From: a virus
Virus record (IMG/VR): IMGVR_UViG_3300001200_000009
Direction: 5' to 3' (one strand)
DNA: 64,000 nucleotides
The stretch's first letter is position 1, and each line of letters begins with the position of its first letter. Shown here piece after piece: positions 45,790 through 63,300 of this stretch. The position numbers and the translations under genes are program-made. The notes beneath the pieces are model-generated. The model worked only from the letters and a program-made list of their open reading frames with translations. It did not search any database and was not told the DNA's origin.

Positions 45790-45864
45790 TGGCGCTAAAG
45801 GATGGACTCGAACCACCGACTTCCGCGCTCCAAACGCGGAGCTCTACCACTGAGCTACACCCTG
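45790..45864 (-). tRNA. tRNA-Pro(TGG) with largely unpaired acceptor stem (possibly pseudo)
   Basis: CCGCG-TTTGGAG-CGCGG; CAGGGTG versus CTTTAGC. Confidence 0.7.
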
Positions 45865-45869
45865 TTGTA

Positions 45870-45944
45870 TGGTCCTAGGCAAGAGATTTGAACTCAATCC
45901 TCCAGATTCACAGTCTGGCCGTCAACCATCGACATCTACCTAGG
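45870..45944 (-). tRNA. tRNA-His(GTG), A73, no encoded G-1
   Basis: CCAGA-CTGTGAA-TCTGG. Confidence 0.88.
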
Positions 45945-46248: not shown

Positions 46249-46342
46249 TGGCGGAACCGGAGAGATTCGAACTCTCATACCTCTAGGGCCTACTGTTTTC
46301 AAGACAGCTGCCGTTACCCAGAATCTTTCGGCTTACGGTTCC
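46249..46342 (-). tRNA. tRNA-Ser(TGA)
   Basis: GCTGT-CTTGAAA-ACAGT, long variable arm. Confidence 0.9.
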
Positions 46343-46957: not shown

Positions 46958-47173
46958 TACTTTTATTTATACTCCGTTTCTGGACAATTCCAAATTATTT
47001 TAACTCAACCTCGTGGATATGTAAATCCTCTTGGCTGTTGAACTCATATGCTTCGAAGGCCTCTTTAGCCTCTTCACGAGACTTATAGACCCCAAGTATT
47101 TCGTTAGGACCTGAAAGCTGGTCATAATGGTTGACCATTTGTGCAACAAAAACTTTCATGTCCATCTCCAATT

Positions 47174-47445
47174 TGGTGGGCGGTGTCAGATTCGAACTGA
47201 CCGCTCTAGAAGCCGTCGTACCTGCGTTAACGGACCATCCCATAATTTAAGTGAGGGGCCATTCAGAGCAAACTCTTCGTGGGTCCTAGACCGTAGCCGT
47301 TTGGCCGGAATTTCTTCCGATTACCTCTATTTCTTTTAGGGGAAGTTAAAGCTCCGGGAGACCCATGATGTGCCTATGCATTCGAGGTTTTACGTTTTCG
47401 CTACCCTGCTACCGAGTCGACGGATTCAAGATAATCTGACCGCCT
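47174..47445 (-). ncRNA. tRNA-Leu(CAG)-like halves separated by a 190-nt structured insert
   Basis: AGGCGGT/ACCGCCC-ACCA, D stem GATT/AATC, GTCG/CGAC, T arm GTCAG-TTCGAAT-CTGAC; joining gives CT-CAG-GT. Confidence 0.55.
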
Positions 47446-47666
47446 CTTATTACTTTAACTTCGCCTAAAAGAAACATATGAGTAAAAGCTCAAAGTTAAC
47501 GATAACCAATCGAAGCTTATTCTCGGGATGGTTAATCCCTACCTTAGCTCTCTGAAACTTTACTAATATGTTTCCTTTATTCTCTATTAGTATAAACTAT
47601 TGAGAATGCTTTGTAAACAAAAAAATCACCACAAAGTGAAAAAGTTTTGTGGTGATTGAATTTAGC

Positions 47667-47762
47667 GAGACAAATCCTAAAGCTGGAGCTTTAATATGTG
47701 GGCATCGAGTTTGACGTCGTAGCCCACGGACGTGTTAGAAGTAAGCGTTTAGATAGCGTCTC
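47667..47762 (-). ncRNA. GCUAU/GAUUU motif RNA, copy C
   Basis: GAGAC/GTCTC, GCTAT/GATTT loop, CTAAA/TTTAG, CGCTTACTTCTA. Confidence 0.7.
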
Positions 47763-47770
47763 TATGGGGG

Positions 47771-47962
47771 TTATGAACAGGTCTTTACAGTCCCGTCAGG
47801 ATTATACATTACGCTAGCTCCATTACGAAACTGAACGTACTTGACGCCTTCAACGCAGTGATATGATTCACCAGTTACGCTAGCATCGATTGAAGCTCCT
47901 ACACCGCAACCAGATAATAGCAATGCTGAGCCAATCATGGCCGCTGTTAGTAATTTTTTCAT
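47771..47962 (-). CDS. Small lipoprotein
   Basis: Lipobox LSGC. Confidence 0.7.
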   Translation of the reverse strand: MKKLLTAAMIGSALLLSGCGVGASIDASVTGESYHCVEGVKYVQFRNGASVMYNPDGTVKTCS

Positions 47963-47964
47963 GA

Positions 47965-50139
47965 TTAGTCCTCAATATGGTCGATGTATTTATCCATGAA
48001 CTCATCGACGTTAGTGTCAAAGTCGAATACTACATCTGCATTCGAACGCTCATCTACTTGCTGTGAACCGCTTCCAAGTACTACCATTTCAGCAATCCAA
48101 CCTAGAGTTGGCTTCTTGTCAGGCATTCCAAGGAATAGCTCGGCATATTGCTTAAGGGTTTCGATATTACCCTCAATGTTACGAGAACCTTCACCAGACG
48201 AGTCAAGGTAGATGATTTTCTCATTCACCAAGTCGAAGATGAGTGGCATAACATTCCGAACTGGTTGGTCAAGAACGAACTTGGACTCAACAGTCGCTGG
48301 TTCAAAAAGTTCTCCCGAACCTAGCTTAGCTCGTTTCATGAAGCCTGCAAAGCAATTCATTGTGCTGAATGGCTCTCCAGAATATGAAAGGATTTGTGGA
48401 ACTACATAACGAGCTCCGCCTTTCAGAAACTTCGAAACGTTAAAGTCGATATATTCGGTAGCTCCATTCCAGCCAGACGTAATGTCTCCAGAATGGACAG
48501 CTTCGAATTCGCCGCGAAGATTGGTGTATGACACTTGAACAACTTGGTTCCAGTTCTCGTCGTAAGCTGCCATAGAAAGGTCAACATCACGAGCTTTCGA
48601 CCAGTGGACGAATAAACGAACCACTTCTTTATGGTCAAACGGAATCGCGCTACCTTTTTCGATAGGTGTAGACGAATCGGAGTCTCCACGCTTGTTGTAT
48701 GGAAGAACACGACCAAACAGGTCAGGGTCAATCCAGACTTTACCTAGTGAAGGCATCTTGGCGTATTGAGATAGCAAATGTCCATAAATTCGATTGCAAA
48801 CTGAGTCGCAGATTCGTTGAGCAATTGGAGCTCGATAATCTTCCGCGAACTTTACCGAATTACGAGTGCCCTTAGGAATAAAGAAGCGTTTGTCATCCGA
48901 ATTCCGATTACGGAAGTGGTAATACAATTGCATCAGAACTCGGTTCTTTACGTCTGGCATAATTTCATAGAATGCCGAAAGAACTTTGTCTGGGTCGCTA
49001 GAGTGATGAGTTGCCTCAAATCCAGCTTTCATCATTTCATCGCCAAATTTCGAACCAGTAGCTTTTGGAGGTTTTGGACCTCGAACAAGAGCGTCAAGAT
49101 GGCGAGCAAATAGGGTTGGACGCGACTTCATTAGTTTTGCGTCAAAGGGCTTAGTGCCTTCTAACATACCATGAAGTTGACGATTGAATGTCCATACAGA
49201 CTTAGGCGCGTTACGAAGAACGTGATACGCTTGAGCAGTTTTTGGATAGCGTGATGAACGACGTGGAGATGCAGGATGGATGTTCTCGCCAAGACGTAAG
49301 AACTTCTCACGATGACGAAGCAAATCTTCTTCGATGTTACTCATGCTTTCGAGCAATTCAAACACTAAACGACGTTGAGGCGATTTCAATTTGAATCGAA
49401 CCTTTGTCGACAGCGAAGTGTCAGCCTTGTTGTCGGTTAGATAGGCCGCGATGCGTAGAACATCAACCGCTCCAGACATTTGAGTCTGTAGGATTGCAGA
49501 AATTCGAGGGACTGGCCACTTCGAATCGAACAAGAGACCAGCAACAATCGGCAAGTTCTCTTTGTAGATTAGGCCTTTGATATCGGCCGCCCCAATTTTA
49601 TCAAGCGTATCGCGAACTAGAATTTTTTCTTTGCGCGATAGCGATGTTTGGGAATTCAACTTTTCGTTGATAACTTTCGCCATATCGTCTTCAGTAAAGA
49701 AGGTAAGGACCTTAAGGTCTACTGGCTCGTTGAAGGTAATTCCAGAGCTTGGAGGTACGACACCACGGTCTGACACGAATGTCCACTTGTTAGTTTGGGT
49801 ATTGAAGCCCATTCCAATACCTAGTCCAAGACCATAAGTCTCGGTAAGCGCGTACGAATACATGTCTGGAATATCGTTGGGGAAAGTTGGGAATAGAATA
49901 TTGTGGGCTACATCAGCACCAGTTAATTCTTTGGCAGTCTCAACAAAGTTAGCGTAGAACGAAAGTAGTTGAGATTGGTCTGATAGGAACAATGCGGAAA
50001 TCAGCTTTCCGTCTGGCTTATAGCCAAATTCGACCATCTGAGATACGATAGCACCAATCAAGCCTGTATTGCTTTTGTCGTAGACCTTTAAGGCTGGAAT
50101 AAAGAATACTCCGCCTAGTAGCGAAATCGTATTTTTCAT
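47965..50139 (-). CDS. Large Ter-system-type protein: alpha-helical N-region plus C-terminal TerD-like domain
   Basis: RPTLFARHLDALVR; FVHW..DVDLS..HSGDITS..ATEYIDF TerD-like motifs. Confidence 0.65.
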   Translation of the reverse strand: MKNTISLLGGVFFIPALKVYDKSNTGLIGAIVSQMVEFGYKPDGKLISALFLSDQSQLLSFYANFVETAKELTGADVAHNILFPTFPNDIPDMYSYALTETYGLGLGIGMGFNTQTNKWTFVSDRGVVPPSSGITFNEPVDLKVLTFFTEDDMAKVINEKLNSQTSLSRKEKILVRDTLDKIGAADIKGLIYKENLPIVAGLLFDSKWPVPRISAILQTQMSGAVDVLRIAAYLTDNKADTSLSTKVRFKLKSPQRRLVFELLESMSNIEEDLLRHREKFLRLGENIHPASPRRSSRYPKTAQAYHVLRNAPKSVWTFNRQLHGMLEGTKPFDAKLMKSRPTLFARHLDALVRGPKPPKATGSKFGDEMMKAGFEATHHSSDPDKVLSAFYEIMPDVKNRVLMQLYYHFRNRNSDDKRFFIPKGTRNSVKFAEDYRAPIAQRICDSVCNRIYGHLLSQYAKMPSLGKVWIDPDLFGRVLPYNKRGDSDSSTPIEKGSAIPFDHKEVVRLFVHWSKARDVDLSMAAYDENWNQVVQVSYTNLRGEFEAVHSGDITSGWNGATEYIDFNVSKFLKGGARYVVPQILSYSGEPFSTMNCFAGFMKRAKLGSGELFEPATVESKFVLDQPVRNVMPLIFDLVNEKIIYLDSSGEGSRNIEGNIETLKQYAELFLGMPDKKPTLGWIAEMVVLGSGSQQVDERSNADVVFDFDTNVDEFMDKYIDHIED

Positions 50140-50162
50140 GATAATCTCCATCATAATATTAA

Positions 50163-50230
50163 AGCGTCAAATCCTAAAACTGAGTTTTTTCAGAATAAAA
50201 GTTAGAAGGAAGTGTTTAGATAGCGACGCT
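50163..50230 (-). ncRNA. GCUAU/GAUUU motif RNA, copy D (5' leader of the TerD-like gene)
   Basis: AGCGTC/GACGCT, GCTAT/GATTT, CTAAA/TTTAG; early promoter 50271-50276. Confidence 0.7.
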
Positions 50231-50294
50231 ATTCTGTATTTGAGATTATAATATCATACCGGTCTGGCATGTAAACGATTAAATTCATTTTTGG

Positions 50295-50372
50295 TTAAAA
50301 TAGTTTGATAAGCGCTGTGTTGTTCAGAACTCGTCTAGCACGTCTACGACGGCGTCTCATAAGTGTTGACAT
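50295..50372 (-). CDS. 25-aa arginine-rich peptide MSTLMRRRRRRARRVLNNTALIKLF
   Basis: AAGGAG SD 5 nt before ATG; fills the gap between genes. Confidence 0.6.
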   Translation of the reverse strand: MSTLMRRRRRRARRVLNNTALIKLF

Positions 50373-62353: not shown

Positions 62354-62602
62354 TGAAGTCCAAAAAGGCTAGGTCCGAAGACCTAGCAAGTTTAAGGGGA
62401 GAATGTGCAAAATCGACTTCCGCACTTGTATATTATAATCTATTTCGAATGGAATGTAAATACGAAAAATCCTCCTAATCAAATGAATTAGGAGGACTTA
62501 ACGGAGGATAACCAATGGAGATGATTTCCTCAAGGCCACCTTACGGCGACTCCACCATCCGACTTTTGGGAGATAAGAGGTGTCGGAGGACCTCTATTTT
62601 GA

Positions 62603-62734
62603 AGAGTCAAATCACGCTGCTAAAAAGGCGCTCTACCACTGAGCTATCCTCCCATAAAGGTGGGAGGAGTGGGATTCGAACCCACGACCCGCTGCTCCGA
62701 ATGCAATAGAAGTAAGCGAACATATAGCGACTCT
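62603..62734 (-). ncRNA. GCUAU/GAUUU motif RNA, copy B, with permuted tRNA module (62628-62692)
   Basis: AGAGTC/GACTCT; T arm, TCCTCCC-loop-GGGAGGA, D arm. Confidence 0.8.
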
Positions 62735-63064: not shown

Positions 63065-63300
63065 TAGAACAAATCCATTTCAGCGAAAAACATGTCGCCA
63101 TGGAATTCAGAAACTTCAAATTCCTTATCAGCTCCCATAAAGTGAACCGTAAATTTGTCACCAACTTTAGTTGCTTGACCCGAAATAATGTCTTTTTGAA
63201 AGAATTTGATAGGCATGTAATATCTCCATTTTACTATTCTAGTATATACTATGGAGCTAGAATGTAAACAACAAAATGCATTTTATTTCTGGAGACATTG

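Follow-up and report, generated by a model that had tools for sequence, protein, structure and literature searches.

Ro60 and the Y RNAs have so far been traced only by the TROVE sequence signature, and the purpose of this ribonucleoprotein (RNP) in bacteria and phages is unclear. A gene of an uncultured phage raises the question of whether proteins shaped like Ro60, with RNAs of their own, also exist outside that signature. The gene lies on the minus strand, at 47965..50139 of a 64,000-nucleotide stretch of DNA (the window) from the IMG/VR virus record IMGVR_UViG_3300001200_000009, a 159-kb T4-like phage with an estimated completeness of 88%. An earlier note on the window, made without database searches, described the product as a TerD-domain protein and a candidate analogue of Ro60. 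We consider it probable that the product is an RNA-binding protein constructed like Ro60, in which TROVE-shaped helical repeats are joined to a metal-binding TerD domain, and that its partners are small RNAs with a shared stem structure, the handle. This proposal is built on the similarity of the predicted fold, on the structure of the RNA, and on a genomic linkage between gene and RNA that holds in both directions.

Predicted architecture of the protein

The coding sequence and the regions of its product are as follows.

47965..50139, minus strand: Ro60-like/TerD coding sequence, 724 amino acids (729 if read from the ATG at 50154)
49696..50154, minus strand: N-terminal alpha/beta region, residues 1-153, from the secondary structure and the predicted local distance difference test (pLDDT) of the model
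48760..49692, minus strand: helical-repeat domain, residues ~155-465, with a predicted Ro60/TROVE-like fold and many invariant arginines
48190..48657, minus strand: predicted TerD beta-sandwich, residues ~500-655

The open reading frame (ORF) begins at 50154, and the 729 residues mentioned in the earlier note belong to this longer reading. The note had placed the start correctly at 50139, the third ATG of the frame, which has GGAG 6 nucleotides upstream; the protein read from there has 724 residues and is the version recorded in the protein collection. The AlphaFold2 model of the full-length protein has a pLDDT of 86.3 and a predicted template modelling score of 0.84. By pLDDT, residues 100-141 appear to be disordered, and the model adds C-terminal helices after the beta-sandwich. 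The long basic helical region on which the note had drawn is present and rich in arginine, with both quoted peptides in place (RHREKFLRLGE at residues 280-290 and RPTLFARHLDALVR at about 345-358). Its invariant basic positions are R234, R287, R314, R345, R351, R358, R417, R423 and K428, and the TerD part has acidic residues at D523/D525, D557, E567 and D570. The TerD-like part also stands, as a predicted beta-sandwich after the helices that Foldseek matches to TerD (3ibz, E 1.5e-5; 2kxt, E 2.3e-4). When the whole protein is searched, three Ro60 chains rank immediately below TerD. Long alignments to botulinum toxin in the same Foldseek list were rejected as noise (root-mean-square deviation 26-30, probability at most 0.2).

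The helical part was modelled separately (residues 143-500, 95-row alignment, pLDDT 90.2), and VIA searches with this model gave the following scores and numbers of aligned residues.

9l5y_B, Ro60 of the Thermus phage phiLo (VIA wide): 10.3, 257 residues
2nvo_A, Deinococcus Rsr (VIA wide): 9.4, 281 residues
1yvp_A, Xenopus Ro60 with RNAs (VIA wide): 8.3, 282 residues
Next best fold (VIA wide): 6.9, 96 residues
9kop, 'Trove domain' (VIA second look): 10.6, 261 residues

The best matches among 48,161 chains are Ro60/TROVE structures, and they align over about two to three times as many residues as any other solenoid. Ro60 is separated from all other helical-repeat proteins by rank as well as by alignment length, and the predicted fold has the shape of the helical-repeat ring of the TROVE module. 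The TerD sandwich, placed at residues 507-674 in the comparison with Ro60, occupies the site of the vWA domain, and the note was right that no vWA/MIDAS motif is recognisable. We conclude from these models that the protein appears to combine a Ro60-shaped domain, without detectable sequence kinship to Ro60, with a TerD domain at the position of vWA.

The sequence family is large. Homologues form 2,257 clusters at 50% identity (E<=1e-3), mostly of about 700 residues, and are annotated elsewhere only as 'hypothetical' or 'RING domain' proteins. They occur in cultured phages (Salicola SCTP-2, Rhodococcus Weasels2, Xanthomonas XacN1 and Xoo-sp13, Rhodobacter RcXuper, Ruegeria RpAliso, Lactobacillus LpeD, and Mycobacterium WXIN) and on bacterial chromosomes (Asticcacaulis, Mesorhizobium, Variovorax, Planctomycetota, a gammaproteobacterium, and Myxococcota). 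A Pfam scan of the window protein found no match at E<=1, including to TROVE, vWA and TerD, and the Pfam TerD profile matches only one of 39 homologues (E 2.7e-6). Searches of the PDB by sequence and by profile returned only chance matches resembling pentatricopeptide repeats. In PHROGs the protein matches phrog_33734, a function-unassigned family (E 7e-51). The NCBIfam model NF041916 matches residues 141-658 (291.7 bits, E 1.1e-86); its equivalog cut-off of 600 bits is not reached, so the window protein is a homologue of this family and not an equivalog. About half of the homologues (43 of 94) carry a small zinc knuckle (CGHVID..CPIC), the feature behind the RING name of the cellular relatives, at the place of the disordered residues 100-141; the window protein and its closest relative (55% identity) lack it. 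The first 230 residues of the window protein contain no cysteine, and no RING or other zinc-binding module is found at the N terminus.

Handle RNAs and their linkage to the gene

The two copies of an RNA motif that the earlier note saw on either side of the gene are both there, and the 25-nucleotide core of the flanking repeat has no match in 100 shuffles. The repeat is bipartite, and its halves pair with each other to form the handle. The phage genome holds four copies in all, two of which lie 12.5 kb from the gene-flanking pair.

50161..50232, minus strand: handle copy B, in the 5' leader; scored at 41 bits (E 1e-7) by covariance model R1; folded
47664..47765, minus strand: handle copy A, in the 3' untranslated region (UTR), with a 48-nucleotide hairpin insert; R1, 19.3 bits, E 0.01-0.07; fold z-score -3.3
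62603..62734, minus strand: handle D2, with a YrlA-type permuted tRNA mimic; R1, 21.2 bits
62743..62879, minus strand: handle D1, in tandem with D2 and also with a tRNA mimic; found by pattern match, with P1 GGAUUG/UAGUCC pairing at 6 of 6 positions

D1 and D2 come after two small ORFs and before a terminator. The handle is composed of a first stem (P1), a GCUAU/GAUUU internal loop, a second stem (P2) and the single-stranded CUUCCUUCUA, with the consensus GG-CUAU ... GNUUU-CC. Aligned instances read P1 (NNNNGG) - C[U/C]AU - P2 (7 bp) - CUUCCUUCUA - a variable part of 13-110 nucleotides ending in YAG - P2' - G[N]UUU - P1' (CCNNNN). The stems are wholly different among instances and retain their complementarity; P1 of copies A and B, for example, differs by two compensatory pairs (GCGUC/GACGC versus GAGAC/GUCUC). 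The excess of G.U pairs (43) over A.C mismatches (3) indicates that the structure belongs to the gene-strand transcript.

Covariation supports the same structure. Pairing holds in 92.8% of the cells of 21 compact seeds, which had been selected for pairing, against 60.6% after shuffling and 41-47% after sliding. Covariance model R1 yields 97 matches at E<=1e-3, all on the gene strand, in which 92.0% of cells are paired (50.9% shuffled, 40-50% slid), all 13 pairs covary, and both sides have changed in 581 cells compared with 195 after shuffling; this alignment was fitted to the model and is biased toward the structure, although the margin is very large. Rfam 15 contains no handle family at its gathering threshold; relaxing the cut-off to E<=5 for the surroundings of copies A and B, and to E<=10 for two loci whose copies are canonical, brought no handle match either. 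Two other readings of the repeats were rejected: that of promoters, because the boxes pair with compensatory changes and promoter-like hexamers lie upstream of them, and that of attC or cassette boundaries, because of the strand-specific G.U pairing.

The variable module of some handles is a permuted look-alike of tRNA, made up of a T-arm, a loop-closed acceptor stem and a D-arm. The same topology is described for the YrlA RNAs bound by Ro60 (Chen et al. 2014, PMC4201824), and the tRNA-like module of YrlA is found in both D1 and D2. The Rfam YrlA model (RF02553, gathering score 69) matches D2 with 35.7 bits (E 3e-6, model positions 27-81 only) and D1 with 21.3 bits (E 0.045), both below the gathering score, and it matches a copy at locus L019 with 42.3 bits (E 1.3e-6, model positions 23-85 of 114). 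The closing stem of YrlA that binds Rsr (positions 1-22 and 87-114) is unmatched in all four YrlA hits, and the handle stands in its place.

The gene is tightly linked to the handle RNA in both directions, at well over a hundred phage and bacterial loci. Starting from the protein, a comparison of flanks found the 10-mer CTTCCTTCTA at 33 of 59 homologue-encoding viral loci, where chance predicts about 0.015 per locus; it is nearly always on the gene strand, immediately 5' of the start codon or 3' of the stop codon. An exact search of viral contigs with the 24-nucleotide box of the window had given no match, and the link surfaced only through this core. Of 52 phage loci, 43 have a handle at E<0.01 no more than 3 kb from the gene and in every case on its strand, and two of five loci that appeared to lack one have the motif a few kilobases further off. 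All seven bacterial loci have a handle beside the gene on its strand (six of six if the unpublished genome G047 is left out). Across five whole phage genomes of 133-461 kb, every significant handle match falls within about 3 kb of the gene. Starting from the RNA, the pattern GGCTAT-N7-CTTCCTTCTA alone retrieved 116 viral loci. The protein gene is present in 86 of them, invariably on the strand of the motif and with a median separation of 171 nucleotides; most of the others are truncated near the motif. Across the 59 viral loci and the window (60 loci in all), no neighbouring protein-coding gene is conserved, the only recurring ORFs being antisense shadows within the gene. At 21 of 49 loci the 3 kb around the gene include tRNA genes, nearly always on the strand of the gene. 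As with Ro60, the protein gene is adjoined by genes for RNAs with a likeness to Y RNAs, and the handle differs from the known Rsr-binding stem.

Among the phage records that carry the family, no canonical TROVE protein was found by Pfam in this phage or in 42 others, 18 of which are at least 90% complete. This leaves the TerD-fusion protein as the only candidate partner of the handle RNAs in these phages. Mesorhizobium sp. SP-1A (G044 contig 2; L070, L063) has a canonical TROVE/Ro60 gene (a 528-codon ORF) and a TerD-fusion gene about 90 kb apart on one contig, so the two systems can coexist in one cell.

Individual loci add observations of their own. The homologue of Gammaproteobacteria bacterium 45_16_T64 (L066:2992-5031) is split into three overlapping ORFs, through frameshifts or as a pseudogene. 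The locus retains its handle RNA (46.3 bits), and upstream there is a further handle that bears a complete tRNA mimic. A DEAD-box RNA helicase gene follows this homologue on the same strand, and a gene of the AlkB/Ada type precedes it on the opposite strand. The homologue of RcXuper, gp7, lies between tRNA-Met and tRNA-Tyr (L077, 4291-7947) and is followed by gp9, which is annotated as a nucleotidyl transferase and is a candidate CCA-adding enzyme.

The surroundings of the gene in the window suggest a compact transcription unit. Nearly all genes of the phage are on the minus strand, and the record contains 16 tRNA genes (ARAGORN), a UvsX-type recombinase and a DnaB-like helicase. Besides the gene and the two handles, the unit comprises the following features.

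50248..50275, minus strand: promoter-like site TTTACA-16-TATTAT with TG, a consensus match only
47771..47962, minus strand: lipoprotein-like ORF of 63 amino acids (MKKLL..LSGC; MKKLLTAAMIGSALLLSGC), as read from the sequence
47619..47657, minus strand: predicted intrinsic terminator, with a stem of 12 bp and then a T run; folding of 47610-47755 reproduces the stem

From 5' to 3' the order is promoter-like site, handle B, gene, 63-residue ORF, handle A and terminator. A transcript from the promoter-like site would begin about 10 nucleotides before handle B, and the predicted terminator closes the unit. The ATG of the lipoprotein-like ORF lies 2 nucleotides past the TAA stop codon of the Ro60-like gene, and the two are probably transcribed together; the arrangement is that of an ORF translationally coupled to the end of the gene, ahead of handle A. 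This ORF is not conserved beside homologues at other loci. The pattern TTTACA-16/17-TATAxT precedes several minus-strand units (47589-47617, 50248-50275, 62432-62460 and 63241-63268) and looks like an early promoter type of the phage.

Three further observations concern the vicinity. Just upstream of the promoter-like site of the gene lies a tiny, very arginine-rich ORF of 25 amino acids (MSTLMRRRRRRARRVLNNTALIKLF; 50295-50371, minus strand) with its own Shine-Dalgarno-like AAGGAG. Between the promoter-like site at 47617-47589 and the next gene, about 400 nucleotides on the minus strand (47174-47600) contain no ORF and have long inverted repeats (22 nucleotides at 95% and 30 nucleotides at 80% complementarity); positions 47171-47197 resemble the 3' half of a tRNA, and Rfam has no match in 47174-47600. 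Finally, the Rfam tRNA model matches three places that ARAGORN does not call, at 45800-45858 (45.6 bits, partial), 45874-45943 (38.4 bits) and 46260-46333 (24.9 bits), all within the cluster of Ala, Ser and Asp tRNA genes just downstream of the transcription unit.

Proposed role and competing explanations

By analogy with Ro60 on the stem of a Y RNA, the protein would dock on the handle. The top of the handle would bear a variable cargo module, and the cargo would give the particle its specificity. TerD may provide a metal-dependent contact or act as a switch. The tRNA-mimic handles D1 and D2 could bring tRNA-recognising enzymes to the particle or serve as decoys for them, and either role would fit the habitual place of the gene inside phage tRNA clusters. 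Handles A and B bracket the transcript of the protein gene itself, which suggests feedback on that mRNA, or its protection and processing, including protection of its ends. For the phage, the particle may control the quality of tRNA or RNA, or counter host defences during infection.

Several results weigh against a Ro60-like RNA-binding protein. The Pfam scan shows no sequence homology to TROVE, and hhalign gives a probability of 0.14% when the family alignment is compared with a 26-sequence TROVE alignment. Foldseek finds no significant match for the helical domain, and TROVE entries appear only at E 0.13-0.32. The cellular relatives carry the name of RING-domain proteins, which hints at an activity directed at proteins. 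RtcB was not found in the phage genome, at its estimated completeness. Two of the four handles lie in the UTRs of the gene itself and would equally fit a purely cis-acting element. On the negative Pfam and profile-profile results, the protein is an analogue of Ro60, or else a very distant relative, and not a demonstrated member of TROVE. In the structural comparison with Ro60 that the earlier note had proposed, Ro60 is at the top of the VIA wide search and Foldseek gives no significance for the helical domain; the proposal of an analogue is borne out by fold and genomic linkage, and not by sequence.

A wider form of the proposal can be advanced only tentatively, and we stop a little short of expecting it to hold. 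It regards the family as a second widespread Ro-type RNP lineage of phages and bacteria, in which a TROVE-shaped ring with a calcium-binding TerD domain would read a dedicated handle whose cargo is interchangeable and includes sealed, permuted tRNA mimics. In large phages the particle would engage host enzymes acting on tRNA or serve as a decoy for them; anticodon nucleases and enzymes of repair or modification are examples, and TerD may place this under metal control.

The handle could instead be only a cis-regulatory or processing element, such as a leader or 3' UTR stabiliser, an RNase site or an attenuator, with the protein serving a TerD-type role that does not involve RNA, such as a calcium-linked stress response or superinfection exclusion. 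This would suit the positions of copies A and B, in the 3' UTR and 5' leader between the promoter-like site and the terminator, and the many loci where a copy abuts the coding sequence, ahead of its start codon or behind its stop codon. When copy B is folded in a wider context, a helix pairs GGAG with an upstream AAUCUC. However, handles also occur in tandem arrays of up to six on either side of the gene, and D1 and D2, with their tRNA mimics, lie 12.5 kb off behind other small ORFs. A cis element also leaves the Ro60-like fold and the interchangeable cargo modules unexplained, and we regard this explanation as unlikely.

Still less probable, in our judgement, is that the protein belongs to a RING/TerD conflict system, as an E3-like component or a Ter-type sensor, and that its helical domain is a generic alpha-solenoid resembling Ro60 only through a common arrangement of helical repeats. 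The names of the cellular relatives point this way, but generic likeness does not account for the first rank of Ro60/TROVE among all chains searched or for the length of those alignments relative to other solenoids. The zinc knuckle is missing from the window protein, its closest relative and half of the family, and is thus not central to the function, and the tight two-way link with a structured RNA would have no explanation. That the repeats are DNA-level boundaries of a mobile cassette (attC-like or homing-associated) carrying the gene among phage tRNA regions is very improbable: direct repeats do bracket the gene, which lacks conserved neighbours and is located in variable tRNA regions, close to HNH endonucleases, but the pairing is strand-specific, the copies at many loci are one-sided or arrayed, some copies contain YrlA-like tRNA mimics, and all copies run in the direction of transcription.

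Comparison with known systems

The Ro60-like RNA-binding protein proposed here can be set beside four known groups. Stand-alone TerD proteins (Klebsiella 2kxt; Streptomyces 2qz7 and 3ibz) have about 190 residues and are encoded in ter operons, whereas here TerD is one module of a 724-residue protein and no Ter genes adjoin. NF041916, the MXAN_6230/SCO0854 RING family, is a true sequence relative, and by ESM Atlas structures it has the helical-plus-TerD architecture in common with the window protein; the window protein differs in having no zinc/RING module. No function or RNA partner is recorded for that family in the sources searched, and a literature search, incomplete for prokaryotic RING families and RNA repair, found no paper that ties the family to TROVE or describes the handle.

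Another of the four groups is Ro60 (Rsr) with its Y and YrlA RNAs. The Ro60 proteins compared (Deinococcus 2nvo, Xenopus 1yvp) have no sequence similarity to the window protein. Its C-terminal domain is a predicted TerD sandwich instead of the vWA/MIDAS domain of Ro60, it has an additional N-terminal domain of about 150 residues, and its gene has neither RtcB nor RtcA nearby. Relative to the YrlA RNAs of Salmonella and Mycobacterium, the sequence and loop of the handle differ, and the YrlA model finds no match for its Rsr-binding part. The last group comprises Ro60 of the Thermus phage phiLo (9l5y; PMC12135203), a canonical TROVE protein, and the TROVE-domain entry 9kop; in structural alignment the present family shows only 11% identity, and it has TerD in place of the canonical vWA domain.

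These differences make the family useful for comparison, since the separate contributions of the ring, the metal-binding domain and the tRNA mimic can be considered. The family also bears on why large phages keep such particles inside tRNA gene clusters, and on whether tRNA mimicry counters host defences directed at tRNA. LpeD, RcXuper and Weasels2 are cultured phages in which a handle adjoins the gene, and the hypothesis is therefore directly testable. If it is correct, a Ro-type system exists in parallel to Ro60, invisible to TROVE sequence searches, with a handle of its own and with the tRNA-mimic cargo of YrlA.

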